DNA from: a virus | Virus record (IMG/VR): IMGVR_UViG_3300042888_000905 | Direction: 5' to 3' (one strand) | DNA: 16,001 nucleotides | The notes under the pieces: model-generated | What the model was told of the DNA's origin: nothing | What the model saw: only the letters and a program-made list of their open reading frames with translations | Databases searched by the model: none | Position numbers and translations under genes: made by a program | Part shown: positions 2,425-16,001 of the stretch, in pieces | Position numbering within the stretch: the first letter of the stretch is position 1 | Layout of the letters: every line of letters begins with the position of its first letter

Positions 2425-4292
2425 TGGCGTTACCAATCATTGAGGACCCGTTATACGGTCAAATCAAAATTGAAACATCACCCTGGCAGACGACGTTATC
2501 GTGGACTGACCGCACCGCCGACTTAGTTGCAGGATTCAACTATTCACAAGGTGGTCGAGTCGGCACACCCGGATCATCACAAGTTGACGTTGGGACACTA
2601 AACGCCACATTTAAGAACCTTGCCAGCGTTCCAGCAGTCGGTGCGCTAGTGCGTATCTCATTCACAGCCGTTGCAGGTTATGCGTTTGTTGGTTATGTGC
2701 AGGATGTGTCGCAACGCATCGTGTTTGACGACTCGGTCAGTTACAACACACCAATCACGCTTACGACCTTGAATTGTGCCGACTGGGTGGGTTATGTTTC
2801 ACAATTTCAGGCGGTAGGTGTCGGCGGTCTAAGCAGTTTGTTCGCACCACAGGATAACTACACTGTTGGTTCACGAGTTCGCGCACTAAACAACATTATT
2901 GACCCGAGCAATGCCACCCAAATGATTACGGACACTGCAAGCGGTGCAACTTCAATTATTGGTGACACTGATATGGTTGGAACATTCTCTGACCATTTAG
3001 ATTTGGTTTCCGCAACCGATAACCGCTATTGGTATGCAGAAAACGTGTTGCCCACAAACCCAACAACTGGTCGCACAGGACTGATTCGTATTCGACAACT
3101 TTCTGGTGCGCCATCGTCCGGCAAGACATTTACAGATCTAGCAGGTTCAGCAGGGCAATTGCACTATACCGAGATTGATTTTCAGTCCTCGTCACAAAAC
3201 GTGGCAAACACAATCGTGCTGAACAACTCGTCGGTCATTACTGCAACTAGTGCTGCACCTCTTTTCGTACCTGCCCTGATTTCACAAATTGGTGGAGGCA
3301 ACAGGCCTAACTATTCAATCGTGAACGGTGTCGAGTTTGTTTCGGTCCCATATGAGCAAACGTGGTCAGGTTCGGATACTTCGTCGATTACGACATACGG
3401 TAATCGCGCTACCGAAATAAACACCAACTTGGCTGGTTTGGTTCAGGCCGCGAACCTCGCTAGTAATCCGTCGGCAGAATACAGCGACACTGGTTATTCC
3501 GCAGGTGCAAACGTAATCGTTCGTCGACGTAAACCAGCAGACGTTGATGCAAATTTGGTCGCTTACAGTGGTGAGTGGTCAATCCGATGCCGACAAGGTT
3601 CGGGATCACCAACCGGCACAATCCAGTTCAACGGTGCAGAAACAGACGGCACACCCATCATCCCCGGAAACGTCTACTATGCCCAAGCAAGAGCAGCTAG
3701 AGGAACCCCAGCACGATCTGATGCGCGAGCCAGAATTATCATTCGTTGGCTAGACGATTCCGAATCAATCATCTCAAGTTCGACAGGATCATATGTCAAT
3801 ATGACTGCTGGTGCGACTTGGTATCAAGTTACTGTTTCTGGTACAGCACCGGCAAGCGCATCACGCGCCCGAGTCAATGTCGAATTTAGTCGAAGCGGAG
3901 CCGGCAACATTCCGACTGGAGATATTCACTGGATGGATGCGTTGCAACTATCCGAACAAAACACGACCTATTTTGACGGTGACACAGCAGCCGACAATTC
4001 ATTTGTTTATCTTTGGACTGGTGAGGTTGGGCTGTCACCCTCGTTCAGAATCACAAACAATCTTGACGACACCATAACAACCTATCTGTCACGATTCTCA
4101 ACAACATCGAACCGAGTGACACGAATCCGATGGAATGCGCAAGAGGATTTAACAGCCGTACCGTCAATGTATGTCGGTTCGACAATCTCAATTATTTACG
4201 ACGGTACGACAACTACATACAGAATCGTCGGGATTGACGGCAACGTGGACCCCGAACGTTACATGATCGACTACTACTTGGAAAAGGTATAA
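2424..4292 (+). CDS. Minor tail / tail-tip protein (622 aa): Dit-like N-terminus plus a carbohydrate-binding-like jelly-roll region
   Basis: TAATG overlap with the TMP gene. The N-terminus (..VDVGTLNATFKNL..VGALVRISF..FVGYVQDV) fits the siphovirus distal-tail pattern. Residues ~340-520 end with the YFDGDT...YLWTGEVGLSPS motif common in phage receptor-binding or CBM-like modules. Confidence 0.6.
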   Translation: MALPIIEDPLYGQIKIETSPWQTTLSWTDRTADLVAGFNYSQGGRVGTPGSSQVDVGTLNATFKNLASVPAVGALVRISFTAVAGYAFVGYVQDVSQRIVFDDSVSYNTPITLTTLNCADWVGYVSQFQAVGVGGLSSLFAPQDNYTVGSRVRALNNIIDPSNATQMITDTASGATSIIGDTDMVGTFSDHLDLVSATDNRYWYAENVLPTNPTTGRTGLIRIRQLSGAPSSGKTFTDLAGSAGQLHYTEIDFQSSSQNVANTIVLNNSSVITATSAAPLFVPALISQIGGGNRPNYSIVNGVEFVSVPYEQTWSGSDTSSITTYGNRATEINTNLAGLVQAANLASNPSAEYSDTGYSAGANVIVRRRKPADVDANLVAYSGEWSIRCRQGSGSPTGTIQFNGAETDGTPIIPGNVYYAQARAARGTPARSDARARIIIRWLDDSESIISSSTGSYVNMTAGATWYQVTVSGTAPASASRARVNVEFSRSGAGNIPTGDIHWMDALQLSEQNTTYFDGDTAADNSFVYLWTGEVGLSPSFRITNNLDDTITTYLSRFSTTSNRVTRIRWNAQEDLTAVPSMYVGSTISIIYDGTTTTYRIVGIDGNVDPERYMIDYYLEKV

Positions 4293-9016: not shown

Positions 9017-10187
9017 CGATCTACTGAATACCCCACAGCCCCCGACGACTCCTGACCGTCGGGGTGCTGCGGTGTTCAGCCAAGAATGGAACGCAACCGG
9101 AGACGAATCCATCGTCACCACAATCAGCGACACCGAAGTCGCACACGAACAACTACACGACTTCATCACCAAACGCGGCGGAATCATCCCCGACGGCTAT
9201 GTGGCCACAATGCTGACCGCCAAATACAACCCAAACGCATGGACACGCGACAAACCATACGACGACTCCGGGCGACAAGCACCAGCAGTCACACGAGGCG
9301 CATGGTCATACACATTCAAAATCAGCAAACGAGTCGACCGTCAATCCCTAGTTGACGATCTAATCCACCTCACCAAAAGAAAGGCAGTAAAACGTGTTGA
9401 ACAGAAAACTGATGAACTCTTTGTCTTTGCCATGGGAGACTCTCAACTTGGCAAACCCGACGGAGACGGAACCGAAGGAATCATTACCGCGTGGGCGCAG
9501 AGCCTTGACCGGGCAAGTGCCGACTGGACCCGAATGGGAAAACCCTCGGTACTTATTGCAGGTCTCGGAGACCATCTGGAAGGAAATCAAAGCCAAGGCG
9601 GCCGAAACTTCTTCCGCTCCGACCTCACGATTTCCGAACAACTTCGGGTCTTTCGCCGGATGCTACTCCGGACCATCGATACATTCATTCAGGCACCGAC
9701 TGTCACGGTGGGCATTGTCAACGGCAATCACGATGACATCCAACGCTTCCAAACGACTGACGCGTCGGATGGACACGCTACTGAATCGGCAATCGCGGTC
9801 AGCGAAGCATTGGCACTCAACCCAGAACGATACGGCCATGTGCGTATGTACGTGCCAGGTAAAGACCAAGACCACTTGGTTCTCGAAGTAAACGGAACCA
9901 ACTTCGTACTGATCCACGGCCACCAATGGTCGCGTGGTAAAGCTATGGAATGGTGGGAGAAACAGACGTTCAACAACCACCCGGCAGGAGCAGGCCACAT
10001 CCTCATCCACGGCCATGAACACGAATTTCAAATCAGCAGCCGACGCGACCGTCTCGTCATCACCACACCAGCACTCGAATCCGAATCAACATGGTTCAAA
10101 CAAAAGTACGGCGCAGTTGGTCGTCGCGGTGTGCTGACATTCATCACCAAACCTGAAGGACAATTCGAGAGGATGGCAATCGTCTAA
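9009..10187 (+). CDS. Calcineurin-like metallophosphoesterase (392 aa) with a ~130-aa N-terminal extension of unknown function
   Basis: Ordered MPE motifs: FAMGDSQLG, GLGDHLEG, GNHD, LIHGHQW, HGHEHE. Confidence 0.85.
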   Translation: MLDDLLNTPQPPTTPDRRGAAVFSQEWNATGDESIVTTISDTEVAHEQLHDFITKRGGIIPDGYVATMLTAKYNPNAWTRDKPYDDSGRQAPAVTRGAWSYTFKISKRVDRQSLVDDLIHLTKRKAVKRVEQKTDELFVFAMGDSQLGKPDGDGTEGIITAWAQSLDRASADWTRMGKPSVLIAGLGDHLEGNQSQGGRNFFRSDLTISEQLRVFRRMLLRTIDTFIQAPTVTVGIVNGNHDDIQRFQTTDASDGHATESAIAVSEALALNPERYGHVRMYVPGKDQDHLVLEVNGTNFVLIHGHQWSRGKAMEWWEKQTFNNHPAGAGHILIHGHEHEFQISSRRDRLVITTPALESESTWFKQKYGAVGRRGVLTFITKPEGQFERMAIV

Positions 10188-10450
10188 TGCCAGCCAAGAA
10201 CAGACCTGATCTAAAAACTGCTGACTGGAAAACATTGCGCCTAGCCATACTTCAACGCGATGCACACACCTGCGCATATTGTGGGGCCGAGGCAGACACC
10301 GTCGACCACATCATTCCAACATCTATGGGCGGAACAGCAGACCCATCCAACCTGCTCGCAGCATGCAACCGATGCAACGGCACCAAGTCCAACAGGATCC
10401 ATGCCCGAACCAACTGGGTCAACACCCGGTGGGGGGTACGCCTATCGTGA
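10187..10450 (+). CDS. HNH endonuclease (87 aa), packaging-associated by position
   Basis: CAYCG...VDHIIP...GGT...NLLAACNRCNGTKSN is a canonical HNH motif. Lies immediately upstream of the terminase genes across the cos-like spacer. Confidence 0.9.
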   Translation: MPAKNRPDLKTADWKTLRLAILQRDAHTCAYCGAEADTVDHIIPTSMGGTADPSNLLAACNRCNGTKSNRIHARTNWVNTRWGVRLS

Positions 10451-10595: not shown

Positions 10596-10847
10596 ATGAC
10601 TAACGCATCGTGGCGCGATATGCCAACATCAAATAGCAAGGCCCTTGAGATGACACTTGATTCGCTTAGTTGGATCGGGGCGGAACACGCTGCGATTGTG
10701 GCGTTGTGTTTGGCAACTGCGAAATCGCTCGATGACGAATACACGGCCGCGAAGTCGTCGTCGTATCTGCAGGGCTTGCGGATGTTGCGGAACTCTGCCC
10801 CGGATGGTGCGCCCACCGATGCACTTGAAGCGTTGATGATCCGATGA
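10596..10847 (+). CDS. terS: Terminase small subunit (83 aa), putative
   Basis: Small helical ORF with an AAGGA RBS and an ATGA overlap with the large terminase gene. Assignment is mainly positional. Confidence 0.5.
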   Translation: MTNASWRDMPTSNSKALEMTLDSLSWIGAEHAAIVALCLATAKSLDDEYTAAKSSSYLQGLRMLRNSAPDGAPTDALEALMIR

Positions 10848-12259
10848 CGTTTGCGCCGACTCGTTACACGCCACCGTTGACAGATGCGTTCGAGTCGTCG
10901 ATTGACAAACTGTTGCCAGCGATTGAGATGGCTTGGTCGGTTGCGACTCCGGGTTTCAAGTTTGATGATTGGCAGGTCGAGTTGATGCGCCGCGTTACCG
11001 AGTTGTTGCCGTCTGGCGAACTGCGTTTTCGTAGTGTCGTAATCAGCATGGCGAGACAACAGGGAAAATCGGAAATAGTCGGCGGTTTGTCCGCGTGGGC
11101 AATTTTGCGAGAACCGGGAACGTATAACGTCGGTGTGGCTTCGACTGCTGAACAAGCACGTTTGGTTTATGACCGTTTGCAAAGAGTGATTGCGTCGAAT
11201 CCAGCGTGGTCGCGTCGGATGTCAAAGTTGACGGAGACGCGTGGTATCAAGACGCTTGACGGTTCGCGGTATGAGATCAAGGCGGCGAACGCGAACACGT
11301 TGCAGGGTATTCCGGTGTCGGTTGGCATTGTCGATGAAGTCCACTTGGTCGAGGCTAAAGTTTGGGATGCTTTATCATCTGGAACTGGCGCTCGAAAAAA
11401 TACGCTTTTGATTGGCATCACAACAGCAGGCGACGAAAACAGCGAATTGCTAAATCGTCTTTACAAGAATTGTGATAAAGCCATTGCTGGGGAACTGGAC
11501 AGATTTGGCGCGTGGATTTGGGAGGCTTCCGAATCGGTTGTGCCGGAGGATGACGACGAACTTATTGCGCTACTAATGGAAGCAAGCCCTGCCTTACAGG
11601 CTGGCCGTATAGATCCGAAACTGTTGTTGTCGGATGTGCGCGCGCTGCCCAAAGACGACATTATCCGTTACCGTCTGAACAGGTTTATTCAGTCCGGCAC
11701 TAAGACATTCATTCCGCCGGAATTGTGGCAGAAGTGTGAACGACCGTTTGGCGCGCAGCTGCCACAGGGTGAGTTTGTGTTTGCGGTTGACCGGACACCC
11801 GACTGGGAACATGCAAGCATTGCGGTATCGGTCAAGGTTGATGATGTGATCTACACGGAACTTGTGGCCAGCATAAATAAGCCGTCACTTGAACAACTGA
11901 TTTTCATTTGCGGTCAACTTATGTCACATTCACCGCGCGCGATTATCGTTGACGGTTACACGCTGCGCGATCTATACAAAGAACTGAAACTCCGTGGCTA
12001 CCCGGCAGAAACTGCGACGCTGGCTGACGTTGTCAACGCATCGTCGTTGTTCTATGCGCGGTTGGCGCGTAAGACGCTTCAGCATGGTGGCGACCCTTTG
12101 TTGTCGATTCAGATTCCGCGCACGGTGCGCAAAATGGTCGGCGAAGGCTTTCGGGTATCGCGGCGCGACTCGGCCGTCGAAATTGATGCAGTCATGGCAA
12201 CTTTGTTGTCAACGTTCGGCGCGGATACTTTGCGAGAACAACCGCTTCAGGTATTCTGA
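10844..12259 (+). CDS. terL: Terminase large subunit (471 aa)
   Basis: Walker A-like ..SMARQQGKSE.., Walker B ..VGIVDEVH.., ..ITTAG.. and a C-terminal nuclease-like half, in Terminase_1-type order. Confidence 0.9.
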   Translation: MTFAPTRYTPPLTDAFESSIDKLLPAIEMAWSVATPGFKFDDWQVELMRRVTELLPSGELRFRSVVISMARQQGKSEIVGGLSAWAILREPGTYNVGVASTAEQARLVYDRLQRVIASNPAWSRRMSKLTETRGIKTLDGSRYEIKAANANTLQGIPVSVGIVDEVHLVEAKVWDALSSGTGARKNTLLIGITTAGDENSELLNRLYKNCDKAIAGELDRFGAWIWEASESVVPEDDDELIALLMEASPALQAGRIDPKLLLSDVRALPKDDIIRYRLNRFIQSGTKTFIPPELWQKCERPFGAQLPQGEFVFAVDRTPDWEHASIAVSVKVDDVIYTELVASINKPSLEQLIFICGQLMSHSPRAIIVDGYTLRDLYKELKLRGYPAETATLADVVNASSLFYARLARKTLQHGGDPLLSIQIPRTVRKMVGEGFRVSRRDSAVEIDAVMATLLSTFGADTLREQPLQVF

Positions 12260-12343
12260 TTCTCTTATGGAAAATGAAAACGTAAACGGCTACGCAGTAC
12301 CACAGGACCCGATGGATCTCTTGCAATGCGATTCATGCCAATA

Positions 12344-12422
12344 GGGGATGAATAGGTTATTCGACGCGGTAAAACCCGAAAGGGAATTGCGGCGGACTTC
12401 GGTTCGATTCCGAACATCTCCA
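12344..12422 (+). ncRNA. tmRNA-like tRNA-like domain (mini-tmRNA) without a tag-template region
   Basis: Acceptor GGGGATG (12344-50) pairs with CATCTCC (12415-21), third pair G:U, followed by A (12422). T-arm is TTCGG/TTCGATT/CCGAA (12398-12414), preceded by GGAC. The 5' segment GGGGATGAATAGGTTATTCGACG resembles the conserved tmRNA 5' end. There is no anticodon arm. Instead a helix CGCGGT/ATTGCG is capped by CCC-GAAA-GGG. Confidence 0.6.
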
Positions 12423-12478
12423 CGACACGCCTGAATTACTTATTGCACTAGTGCAGAAAAGGTACCATACTGGTATCA

Positions 12479-13609
12479 ATGGGATTCTTAGATTTTCTAA
12501 ATCCAACGCGCGGCTTTGATATCGCGCAGTCTTTTGCGCCCGGATTCGAGGAACGCAGTTCAGGGATTATCCCACCGCCGCGTTCGGCGACTTCGGGGGT
12601 CACAACCAACGACGCTCTCTCGTTGGCTTCCGTCTACCGCTCCGTGTCTATCATCGCTACCGCGATGAAGCAGTTGGGCATTCACGTCTACCGTGACGAC
12701 GCCGAAGTGACCCCCACCCCTTTGGTTATCCGCCAACCGGACATCAAGGTCACACGCGAAGTGTGGATGGAACAAACCATCAACTCGCTGGCGCTCGCAG
12801 GTAACGCTTACTGGCTTATTGGTCGCAACGGTCGCGGCGAAACTATCAACCTCGAAGTTCTGAACCCATTCGAGATGATGATCCAGACTGATGACTACGG
12901 TACGGCGCTTTACTACGTTTACCGTGGCATTACGCGTTACGAACTCCGTGACATTCAGCAGTTGGCGATGATGCGTGTACCGGGCAATGTCTACGGCCTT
13001 GGGCCCATTCAGGCCGCGCAGAAAGAACTGCTGAACGCGCGCGACACACGCGATTACGCTTCGGTGTGGTTTACCGATTCGGGTATCCCGAACGGTGTGT
13101 TGAAGTCTGACCAGATGCTTTCACCCGATCAGGCCGCAGCTGCGAAGGATGCATGGAACCTGACCGCTGGTGCTAAGAACGGTGTGGCCGTTCTCGGTAA
13201 CGGTTTGACGTATCAGCCAATGTACCTGAACCCACGCGACGCGATGTTCCTTGAGGCGCAGGCATTCAACGTGCAACAGATTGCCCGGTTGTTTGGTGTT
13301 CCGGCAAACATGCTTCTCGCGTCGGTTGACGGAAATTCCATGACGTATTCGAATATGGAACAAGAACAAATGGGATTTGTTCGCTACACGCTTTCGCAAT
13401 ACATCGTCGAAATCGAATCGGCACTAAGCCACCTGATGACACGCGGAACAATGGTCAAAATCAATGTTGACTCGCTACTCCGTTCCGACACTCTTACACG
13501 TTACCAAGCGCACCAGATTGCCATTGCCTCCGGGTGGATGACAATCGACGAGGTTCGCGCCATCGAGGACATGCCGACTCTTGGAGGAGATTTTAGTGCA
13601 GTCAATTGA
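12479..13609 (+). CDS. Portal protein (376 aa), HK97-type
   Basis: Size, position after TerL and before protease/capsid, and typical portal stretches (..NAYWLIGRNGRGE..LEVLNP.., ..FGVPANMLL..NMEQEQMGFVRYTL..). No obvious SD. Confidence 0.85.
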   Translation: MGFLDFLNPTRGFDIAQSFAPGFEERSSGIIPPPRSATSGVTTNDALSLASVYRSVSIIATAMKQLGIHVYRDDAEVTPTPLVIRQPDIKVTREVWMEQTINSLALAGNAYWLIGRNGRGETINLEVLNPFEMMIQTDDYGTALYYVYRGITRYELRDIQQLAMMRVPGNVYGLGPIQAAQKELLNARDTRDYASVWFTDSGIPNGVLKSDQMLSPDQAAAAKDAWNLTAGAKNGVAVLGNGLTYQPMYLNPRDAMFLEAQAFNVQQIARLFGVPANMLLASVDGNSMTYSNMEQEQMGFVRYTLSQYIVEIESALSHLMTRGTMVKINVDSLLRSDTLTRYQAHQIAIASGWMTIDEVRAIEDMPTLGGDFSAVN

Positions 13610-15116
13610 AACCCGTGAAATGGAATTTCGCGTCACCGACAAAGACAAGCGTGAGGTTGCTGGCATCGCCGTACCTTACGACACGTTGGAGAACGGTGAA
13701 ATGTTTGCGCGCGACTCGGTCACTCTGGACCCTGAAGCGAAACTGATGTGGCAGCACGATCAGAAGGAACCAATCGGCAAAATCACCGAAGGCCGTCACA
13801 CGCCAGAGGGTTTTGAGATTCGCGCAACCATTAGCGAAACGTCACGCGGACTCGATGCCATCACCCTTTTGGAGGATGGTGTCATCAATAAGTTCTCGGT
13901 TGGTTTCGTTATGCGCGATTCCAAGGTCAACGACGACCGCACTCGAATTGTCACCGACGCATTCGTGCGTGAGGTGTCGCTAGTTTCGTTCCCGTGGTAT
14001 TCAGACGCATCCGTGACTGAAGTTCGCGAGAATGACACCGACCCGGAAGTTCCGGACTCGGCAAATCCCAAGGAGGATACTGTGGAGGAAATCATCCCCA
14101 CCGATTCCGACCTCGCCGAGGTTCGCGAATCAATCCAGATGCTTGAGCGAGAAATTGCTGGCATCACCAAGGTCGAGGCAGCCGCCCCGACTTACCGCAC
14201 CGCTGGTCAGTTCTTGAAGGCCATCGTTGACGGTGACGACAACGCAGTCAAGATTTTTGACCGCGTTTATTCGGGTGCGACTACCGCAGATTCGGTTGTT
14301 ACCCCCATCGACTTCGACCTGATTCGCCTCGTTGAGGGTGCAAACCCTCTCGGTGCAGTTTTCGGTCGTGGTGTTACTCCAGCAACCGGAATGGCAATCA
14401 CGTTCGCACAGGTTGACGCAATCACCGACGGAACTGCCGAGCAGGACCCCGAAGGCGAGGACTTGGGCTACTACCAGCTGAACCTCGAAACCAAGTCGGT
14501 TGACATCAAAACCATTGGATCGCGATCCGAACTCACGCGTCAGGCCATCGAACGCAGCACCGTACCGTATCTCGACTCGGTTCTCCGTGGACAGGCAATC
14601 GCCCTCGGAAACAAGTTGGCTGCAGAACTGCGCAACAAGTACACCGCGACGGTCTCCAACCAGGCTGGCGCAGGTCGCATTGTTACTCGTTCGGCTGAAA
14701 CCTACGACGGATGGGCCGGCGCACTTGCCGACGCAGCCGCAACGTACTTCCAGCCACAGGGTGCATCCATCGACGCTCTCGTCGTTGGGAAGGCCACGTT
14801 CAAGAACCTCTTGGCTCTTGACGGAACCCCGGTCATCTCGTTCTCGCAAGAAAACGCTGGTGCATTCGGTTCGGCTAACCCCGGCGGTCTCCGCGGAACC
14901 ATCGCAGGCATCCCCATCATCGTTGACGCGCAGCTCGCCGCCAACGGAACCGAGGATGCATTTGTTTCGTCGCTGGCTCTCCGTCAGTTCACTTCAGCCG
15001 CAATGCGCATGTCGCAGGACAACGCCGCCAACCTCAGCACGACGTTCGCTTTGGCGACCTACACGGCTGTAGCGGATGAGTACCCCACGCTGATCATCCC
15101 CACGGTCGCTGACTAA
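13596..15116 (+). CDS. Prohead protease - major capsid protein fusion (506 aa from GTG 13596)
   Basis: The N-terminal ~150 aa are HK97-type prohead protease-like (..GIAVPYD..WQHD..PIGKI..FSVGF..EVSLVSFP..). Next comes an acidic/coiled linker (..DSDLAEVRESIQMLEREIAGI..). The last ~300 aa are HK97-fold capsid-like. GGAGGAG lies 6 nt upstream of GTG 13596, which is in frame with the track start 13581. There is no separate capsid or protease ORF. Confidence 0.8.
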   Translation: MQSIETREMEFRVTDKDKREVAGIAVPYDTLENGEMFARDSVTLDPEAKLMWQHDQKEPIGKITEGRHTPEGFEIRATISETSRGLDAITLLEDGVINKFSVGFVMRDSKVNDDRTRIVTDAFVREVSLVSFPWYSDASVTEVRENDTDPEVPDSANPKEDTVEEIIPTDSDLAEVRESIQMLEREIAGITKVEAAAPTYRTAGQFLKAIVDGDDNAVKIFDRVYSGATTADSVVTPIDFDLIRLVEGANPLGAVFGRGVTPATGMAITFAQVDAITDGTAEQDPEGEDLGYYQLNLETKSVDIKTIGSRSELTRQAIERSTVPYLDSVLRGQAIALGNKLAAELRNKYTATVSNQAGAGRIVTRSAETYDGWAGALADAAATYFQPQGASIDALVVGKATFKNLLALDGTPVISFSQENAGAFGSANPGGLRGTIAGIPIIVDAQLAANGTEDAFVSSLALRQFTSAAMRMSQDNAANLSTTFALATYTAVADEYPTLIIPTVAD

Positions 15117-15799: not shown

Positions 15800-16001
15800 A
15801 TGGCAACATCGACTCGTATCAAAGCAAACGCTCTCTTGCTTTCCATTGACGGCACGGACTACTGGGCGGATTTTTCGTCGGTTGTCATGCAGTCGGAGGA
15901 TGCTTCAGCAGACGTAACCACGTTCTACGACGCATCGCTCGGTGGCCGTCGCGACTTCTACTTCACCGTGTCCGGTGTTCAGTCCGTTGAAGCAGCGTCG
16001 T
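15800..16001 (+). CDS. Major tail (tube) protein, 5' part (continues as 1-354 after the circular junction)
   Basis: AAGGAG lies 7 nt upstream of ATG 15800. The frame is continuous through the 127-bp overlap. Confidence 0.6.
   Translation, partial: MATSTRIKANALLLSIDGTDYWADFSSVVMQSEDASADVTTFYDASLGGRRDFYFTVSGVQSVEAAS
15875..16001. repeat. Terminal overlap, copy B (identical to 1-127)
   Basis: Same comparison as copy A; offset 15,874 bp. Confidence 0.95.

Follow-up and report, generated by a model that had tools for sequence, protein, structure and literature searches.

Trans-translation is the main bacterial pathway of ribosome rescue and protein quality control, and whether bacteriophages attack it or put it to use is a little-explored question. 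The question is raised by a stretch of viral DNA 16,001 nucleotides (nt) long, IMG/VR virus record IMGVR_UViG_3300042888_000905 (the window, meaning the whole stretch analysed), in which a 79-nt element at positions 12344-12422 lies between the genes for the large terminase subunit (TerL) and the portal protein. What is this element, and what might a phage of this size do with it? An initial annotation had read it as the acceptor stem (P1), D-loop analogue, P2 helix and T arm of transfer-messenger RNA (tmRNA, the product of ssrA), with the messenger part swapped for a capped hairpin. That reading has held up against the Rfam tmRNA model and against covariation in related phages: the element is a real mini-tmRNA, one more case of a kind that is known but barely studied. 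From its sequence and that of its relatives, we consider it highly probable that 12344-12422 is a homologue of tmRNA reduced to the tRNA-like domain (TLD) and is under selection.

Structure and conservation of the element

Searched against Rfam, the window contained a single family above threshold, tmRNA (RF00023), which scored 52.0 bits on 12344-12425 of the plus strand (GGGGAUGAAUAGGUUAUUCGACGCGGUAAAACCCGAAAGGGAAUUGCGGCGGACUUCGGUUCGAUUCCGAACAUCUCCACGA), over the gathering score of 47 and with an E value of 3.4e-18, so that the covariance-model signal sought by the initial annotation is present. The alignment spans positions 1-374 of the model, 12 nt standing in for 306 internal positions, and in a comparison across the tRNA clan tmRNA remained the best model for the element. 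A covariance model that we built from five sequences of the phage family (R1) gave 103 bits. ARAGORN, run on the whole window, returned 0 tRNA and 0 tmRNA genes and no tag peptide, in agreement with the reported absence of an anticodon arm. The predicted fold agrees with the Rfam alignment, and its stability (minimum free energy -27.9 kcal/mol, z = -1.73) is unremarkable taken alone.

The acceptor stem, discriminator, GGAC, T arm and tetraloop hairpin were each confirmed in the sequence at the positions first given for them (Table 1). The acceptor stem has 7 bp, the third of which is a G:U pair (G3:U70), followed by the unpaired discriminator A12422; as had been noted, CCA is not encoded, the 3' trailer being CGA (12423-12425). 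The D-loop is reduced and stem-less and is linked to P2 via UCGAC...GGAC (GGAC at 12394-12397, directly 5' of the T arm), and the T stem-loop is of the tRNA type. The mRNA-like domain (resume codon, tag frame and stop codon) is missing, the P2 strands being 18 nt apart and folded as a capped hairpin, and so are pseudoknots PK1-PK4, which correspond to the 306 absent RF00023 positions; a CCC-GAAA-GGG hairpin at 12375-12384 stands in place of this whole region. Since it has no messenger part, the mini-tmRNA cannot perform the messenger half of trans-translation. Two other classifications were rejected: a tRNA-Ala, because the element has neither a D stem nor an anticodon arm carrying an alanine anticodon (ARAGORN calls none and Rfam prefers tmRNA), and a permuted or two-piece tmRNA, which is ruled out by the standard gene order.

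To follow the element through the family we used 60 loci found by a portal-protein search of IMG/VR, on contigs of up to 17.8 kb, and counted its presence or absence in the 44 related contigs whose portal is at least 55% identical. With R1, the mini-tmRNA was found at the same position in 30 of the 44; in the window and these 30 loci it scores 80-107 bits and lies without exception on the coding strand, at a distance of 135-216 nt upstream from the start of the portal gene. Rfam alone called the element in four relatives with 55-58% portal identity (47-55 bits), and among further relatives four scored 48-54 bits, passing gathering, and three fell below it at 32-45 bits. Over 22 distinct sequences, 94% of the paired cells hold a pair and 13 pairs show double (compensatory) changes, values that none of 500 shuffles reached; slid controls were 25-54% paired. 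The acceptor stem is 100% paired, with double changes in four of its seven pairs, and in the hairpin pair 34:39 covaries as CG, UA and UG. The compensatory changes that had been proposed as a check are therefore found in the acceptor stem, P2 and the T stem alike.

None of the 22 sequences departs from G1-C, G2-C, G3:U70 or the discriminator A, and in one locus (L025) the other four acceptor pairs are all swapped (GGGCCGU/ACGGUCC) with G3:U70 kept. Because the loci were found via the portal protein, this invariance is not an artefact of the search. The GG and UCGAC motifs of the D-loop analogue are invariant in five diverse aligned family sequences and nearly so family-wide (L029 has UUGAC). 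No family member encodes CCA, the trailers being CGA, CGC or CAC. This pattern of substitution indicates that the structure is kept by purifying selection in a family of phages of about 16 kb.

The internal helix called for a more qualified reading. Covariation supports P2 itself, its register being ambiguous by 3 nt because a GCGGCG repeat in the 3' strand permits both pairings. In the canonical tmRNA register (C12365-G12394 and so on), which is also that of Rfam and of the minimum free energy fold, 83% of the cells are paired and pair 24:49 covaries; in the alternative register (C12365-G12391 and so on), drawn in the initial annotation as CGCGGU/AUUGCG, 93% are paired and pair 25:45 covaries. 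Distant mini-tmRNAs inspected by eye (for example L077), a subset of the members only, fit the canonical register. The further extension proposed, to C12362-G12394, is unlikely, because it would destroy the conserved UCGA of the D-loop analogue.

The TLD-only form is not without precedent in phages, as had first been thought. Hudson, Lau and Williams 2014 (PMC4131195) list 'Mycobacterium phage DS6A (TLD only)', citing Mao et al. 2009; in the searchable literature we found no phage case besides DS6A, which has been on record since 2009 and is treated as a curiosity. We located its element at 28478-28560 of JN698994 (L001), where it scores 44 bits with R1, under the Rfam gathering score, starts 10 nt after gp33 and before the DNA polymerase III beta gene gp34, and is unannotated in the GenBank record. 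The DS6A (tmID 11587) and window elements are alike in their length of about 80 nt, G3:U70, discriminator A, stem-less D analogue ending in UCGAC, short P2 capped by a small hairpin, T arm and lack of an encoded CCA, although in sequence they are only distantly alike. DS6A, however, is a 60.6-kb temperate phage with an integrase and carries its element outside the packaging module, whereas the window is a 15.9-kb genome without an integrase and carries its element between terminase and portal. DS6A also encodes an RtcB-like RNA ligase (gp76); the most frequent bacterial target of RtcB is reported to be SsrA (PMC11090510).

With bacterial tmRNA (ssrA, RF00023) the window element shares P1 with G3:U70, A73, the D-loop analogue, the start of P2a and the T arm, and it has none of the resume codon, tag open reading frame (ORF), stop codon and PK1-PK4 of the bacterial RNA. 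Full-length phage tmRNAs, such as those of Bxz1-like mycobacteriophages, Bacillus phage G and marine myophages (e.g. Melnitz; PMC4131195, PMC9004378), are also phage-encoded ssrA homologues, but they keep the tag frame, in one or two pieces, and occur mostly in large genomes, whereas the window element is tagless and sits in a 16-kb genome. The tmRNAs without a coding sequence (CDS) known from jakobid mitochondria and two Mallomonadaceae plastids, which are thought to help with incomplete mRNAs (the 2025 tmRNA database, PMC11915505), likewise have little beyond the TLD and no tag frame; these, however, are organellar, vertically inherited and served by nucleus-encoded SmpB, in contrast to a viral accessory cassette. 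What is new here is the evidence for selection on the TLD-only design in tiny, apparently lytic metagenomic phages unrelated to DS6A, together with the presence/absence variants, the overlap with the stop codon of a small ORF and the breadth of the class described below.

The genome around the element and its optional cassettes

The two ends of the contig share 127 nt (1-127 = 15875-16001), which makes it a complete genome 15,874 bp in length, either a closed circle or a molecule with terminal redundancy, with all genes on the plus strand; the record belongs to JGI metagenome 3300034093 (Ga0335012_0001318). Protein families place TerL upstream and the portal downstream of the element, as the initial annotation had it. 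Other genes encode a major tail protein, a chaperone, tape-measure-like and minor tail proteins, a head-tail connector, an M23-type peptidase/endolysin, a RecE-like exonuclease, RusA, a replication initiator and a second exonuclease; there is no integrase among the ORFs of the closed genome, and the phage is apparently lytic. The nearest isolates are the lytic Microbacterium phages of cluster EE, of about 17.4 kb (TerL 45.6% and capsid-protease fusion 35% identical in amino acids (aa)). The RNA is absent from one of them, Kaijohn, where R1 scores 13.7 bits at best, and the terminase-to-portal DNA gave no blastn match among 50,697 isolate phages. From the cluster EE relatives and a leaderless-type promoter geometry we infer that the host is probably actinobacterial; the RNA itself did not point to a host, since none of the at least 100 bacterial mini-tmRNAs listed (see below) belongs to the window family (best 69 bits).

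Between terminase and mini-tmRNA lies a conserved ORF of 25 aa. Its peptide is preserved through synonymous substitutions in over 45 loci, at portal identities as low as 46% and irrespective of the presence of the TLD, and has the C-terminal motif VPxDPMDLLQC(D/E)SCQ. In the window its UAG stop (12342-12344) ends in G12344, the G1 of the mini-tmRNA. This base is shared in 11 loci (the window, L005, L009, L010, L015, L016, L023, L039, L041, L045 and L047), stop and G1 abut in 12 and they are 1 nt apart in one; in six loci another module stands between them, and in L044 the same type of hairpin lies upstream and the contig ends before the ORF; the module is mostly the ~115-nt cassette described below. 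We rejected this ORF as a tag frame, since it also occurs where the TLD is missing and its C-terminus is unlike a tag. A 52-aa ORF on the minus strand (12265-12423) was likewise rejected, as it lies across conserved features of the plus strand and is interrupted in relatives without the TLD.

Directly 3' of the mini-tmRNA is a conserved block, GACACGCC (12424-12431), and then a promoter-like site before the portal gene (Table 1). The consensus promoter scan does not call this weak site, TTGCAC-17-CATACT; in the relative L006 (1944-1973) it calls TTGACT-18-TAGTAT, 7 nt before the ATG. A -10 element ending 7 nt before the ATG suggests that the portal mRNA may be leaderless. Because the promoter-like site precedes the portal, the mini-tmRNA would lie at the end of a terminase/small-ORF unit and not within a terminase-portal message. 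Palindromes also occur in the stretch before the portal, TTGCACTAGTGCA in the window and ones of the ACACTAGATGTAGTGT type in relatives. The pre-portal region comes in two alternative versions, which swap among phages with 99-100% identical portals, and is for that reason a mosaic.

The mini-tmRNA is absent from 14 of the 44 family loci, two of which have a portal 100% identical to that of the window. Where it is present the junction reads ...CAAUA(G GGGAUG...CUCCAC) GACACGCC, where it is absent ...CAAUAG-U-GACACGCC, and the flanks are nearly identical. Since near-identical genomes differ by exactly these ~80 nt, the mini-tmRNA is an optional cassette, and its gain and loss provide natural TLD+/TLD- pairs for experiments, with which the use or subversion of trans-translation by phages is directly testable. 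A second optional cassette, of about 115 nt, occupies the same site in some relatives, with or without the TLD. It has the core GGTCGCG...TTGACCGCCCGGGTCTCC and, at its 3' end, a GC-rich hairpin that shows compensatory changes and runs into a U-rich tail, a terminator-like arrangement; it has no Rfam match and is absent from the window. Two further loci (L037:2784-3167 and L040:1815-2199) carry a protein-coding insert of about 385 nt at the small-ORF/portal junction and no RNA cassette there, which makes this junction a general hot spot for accessory cargo.

Table 1. Positions of the mini-tmRNA, its parts and its neighbours in the window, with the second cassette of related contigs in the last row.
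Feature	Coordinates	Strand	Remarks
HNH	10187-10450	+	
Large terminase subunit TerL	10844-12259	+	phrog_9 2.9e-61, PF03354; upstream gene
Conserved 25-aa ORF, MENENVNGYAVPQDPMDLLQCDSCQ followed by stop	12267-12344	+	Listed by no gene caller
Mini-tmRNA, TLD only, G1 to discriminator A, 79 nt	12344-12422	+	Rfam RF00023, covariance model R1, 30 related loci
Acceptor stem 5' strand, GGGGAUG	12344-12350	+	G12346 = G3 of G3:U70
Stem-less D-loop analogue, AAUAGGUUAUUCGA	12351-12364	+	tmRNA GG and UCGA(C) motifs; aligned to consensus GAucuGGaUUCGAC (Rfam)
P2 (H2-like) helix, 12365-12372 / 12387-12394	12365-12394	+	Closed by internal loop and CCC-GAAA-GGG hairpin
T arm, 5-bp stem UUCGG/CCGAA, 7-nt loop UUCGAUU	12398-12414	+	100% paired, double changes in 4/5 pairs
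Acceptor stem 3' strand, CAUCUCC	12415-12421	+	U12419 = U70
Promoter-like site	12424-12478 region	+	TTGCAC (12443-12448), 17 nt, CATACT (12466-12471), 7 nt, portal ATG; read by eye
Portal protein	12479-13609	+	PF04860 1.2e-72, phrog_12; downstream gene
Protease-capsid fusion	13581-15116	+	
Second optional cassette, ~115 nt	L017:2211-2325, L018:1674-1789, L021:1815-1930, L022:1810-1925, L027:3749-3863		Same site, with or without TLD

Possible action on host ribosome rescue

In bacteria the 5' end of tmRNA is cut by RNase P, alanyl-tRNA synthetase (AlaRS) charges it by way of G3:U70 and A73, SmpB binds its elbow and D-loop, and EF-Tu delivers it to the ribosome (PMC3968760). According to PMC3895274, which cites Shimizu and Ueda 2006, an RNA consisting of the TLD only accepts peptide in vitro. 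The initial annotation had put forward two possible roles, titration of SmpB, AlaRS and EF-Tu or punctuation by RNase P/Z processing. We propose that the phage mini-tmRNA could act as a decoy. It would be transcribed on the plus strand at the end of the message for terminase and the small ORF, cut at G1 by RNase P, trimmed at the 3' side after A12422, given its CCA by a host enzyme and charged with alanine by host AlaRS. Host SmpB would bind its elbow and EF-Tu would deliver it to ribosomes stalled at mRNA 3' ends, and there an RNA with no resume codon, tag or stop codon would compete with host tmRNA for SmpB and for the stalled ribosomes. Nascent chains would escape SsrA tagging for proteolysis, and normal trans-translation would be blocked or diverted in infection. 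The invariance of G3:U70 suggests that charging matters, the more so as processing by RNase P or RNase Z alone would not require this pair, and it speaks for an action on the ribosome more than for mere SmpB titration. We judge the chain as a whole, from TLD identity through decoy action, to be somewhat favoured, and the case for the decoy or competitor mechanism itself to be evenly balanced.

Several points weigh against this proposal. According to PMC4131195, a similar TLD-like molecule inhibits E. coli tmRNA and need not be chargeable for this (PMC11915505 credits the inhibition of endogenous tmRNA in E. coli to the DS6A form), and so pure titration of SmpB fails to account for the invariance of G3:U70. 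A peptidyl-Ala-TLD would face the ribosome without a template or a stop codon. Compatibility with the AlaRS and SmpB of the host is assumed. The mini-tmRNA is also dispensable, as seen from the 14 loci that do without it, portal-identical genomes among them. Finally, in seven relatives another module lies upstream of the TLD; in six of them a hairpin resembling a terminator, followed by a U-rich tail, closes this module, which makes it uncertain whether the TLD is co-transcribed with terminase in these relatives.

The same molecule might instead serve the cell and the phage together: with SmpB, the alanyl-TLD would free ribosomes on truncated phage or host mRNAs and add one alanine, the peptide would be released by drop-off with Pth or ArfB-type factors, and translation capacity would be kept and phage proteins spared, for example when host nucleases cut mRNAs. 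Such rescue without tagging could account for the invariant AlaRS identity set, which pure SmpB titration does not need, and it is consistent with the retention of CDS-less tmRNAs in jakobid mitochondria and two plastids (PMC11915505), with the peptide taken by a TLD-only RNA in vitro (cited in PMC3895274) and with the position of some TLDs in phage tRNA arrays, beside other translation helpers. However, no release step is known for a peptidyl-TLD without a stop codon, and the similar molecule mentioned above is reported to have inhibited E. coli tmRNA and not to have replaced it (PMC4131195, and PMC11915505 for the DS6A form). The two mechanisms are not computationally distinguishable here; blocked tagging and rescue is the preferred reading, and rescue without tagging appears unlikely.

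A role confined to the RNA level is less probable still. The element could be an RNase P/RNase Z signal or a 3' cap that ends the terminase/small-ORF message, the excised RNA having no role, as its site at the end of a transcription unit, directly before a promoter-like site, would fit. In 23 of the 30 loci G1 is either shared with the upstream ORF's stop or next to it, and several unrelated mini-tmRNAs likewise abut or overlap an upstream stop codon. Yet these nucleases need neither G3:U70 nor the discriminator A, both invariant in the family, nor the D analogue and UCGAC...GGAC, which are nearly so; relatives without the TLD have the same gene order and promoter region; and the portal appears to own a promoter, so that punctuation is unneeded. 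We therefore hold this explanation to be distinctly improbable.

Integration into ssrA is common among phages, which then carry the 3' end of the gene with them. That the element is a remnant of integration or excision at a host ssrA (an attP core or captured fragment) or a functionless pseudogene is scarcely credible: in blastn against isolate phages it does match only with its 3' half (25-30 nt, in temperate Streptococcus and Actinomyces phages), but its 5' and 3' halves are both present and pair with each other, compensatory changes keep the structure in relatives with as little as 55% portal identity, an integrase is missing from the closed 15,874-bp genome and the same architecture recurs in many unrelated phages. 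The initial annotation had named an ssrA match limited to the 3' ~45 nt as the sign of an att-site remnant; against this stand the two halves of the TLD, both present, and the lack of an integrase.

Returning to the decoy model, we tentatively consider a broader version of it, in which widespread and largely unannotated phage mini-tmRNAs, charged with alanine and bound by SmpB, would control host ribosome rescue, and in which the circuit of the window family is perhaps self-contained. RNase P cleavage at G1 would remove the last base of the UAG of the 25-aa ORF, leaving ...CAA-UA, and the upstream message would in this way be turned, by the maturation of the mini-tmRNA itself, into a non-stop substrate. 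A similar overlap has been noted for smpB-ssrA in Carsonella (PMC4131195). This extended scheme is doubtful on present sequence comparisons, more so than the decoy mechanism as such.

Breadth of the mini-tmRNA class

Scanned with the strict pattern GGGGNNG-N7-12-TCGAC-N20-50-GTTCGANTC-N7-CTCCA, IMG/VR yielded at least 120 matching stretches, and bacterial assemblies taken at one genome per species yielded at least 100 matches, including Streptomyces, Nostoc, Planctomycetota, Eremiobacterota and Saccharibacteria. All 80 viral loci examined among these matches contain an element of 63-95 nt that scores 32-103 bits with R1 (65 distinct sequences, G+C 46-77%), and 14 of 16 elements of the wider class that were tested pass the Rfam tmRNA gathering score (54-71 bits). 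G3:U70 and the tmRNA motifs are imposed here by the pattern and so provide no independent evidence. CCA is encoded in about a third of the distinct matches (21 of 66) and not in the rest. These searches are an indication that mini-tmRNAs may be common in phages and under-annotated.

Many other lineages of phages share the design, yet it escapes ARAGORN, which called none of the mini-tmRNAs in DS6A and 57 other loci and whose two 'tmRNA' calls, of 343 nt in L071 and L121, are spurious and have an implausible tag. As a remedy we suggest annotating tmRNA covariance-model matches shorter than about 100 nt. Roughly 10 of the 57 mini-tmRNAs lie within or beside phage tRNA arrays. The 91 ORFs flanking other mini-tmRNAs share no family and none is SmpB; because there is neither a phage SmpB nor a common neighbour protein, host factors must be used.

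An element that overlaps or abuts the end of an upstream ORF was also seen among mini-tmRNAs unrelated to the window family (L073/L101, L133, L137, L106 and L086/L118). On another unrelated viral contig (L113) a mini-tmRNA (3860-3941) lies beside a ROOL RNA (3239-3835, 286 bits) in an array of 12 tRNAs. In a bacterial contig of Actinomadura sp. 3N407 (L248:4285-5013) three tandem R1 matches of 30-57 bits fall within 730 nt, and may represent an array of mini-tmRNA or tRNA-like genes.

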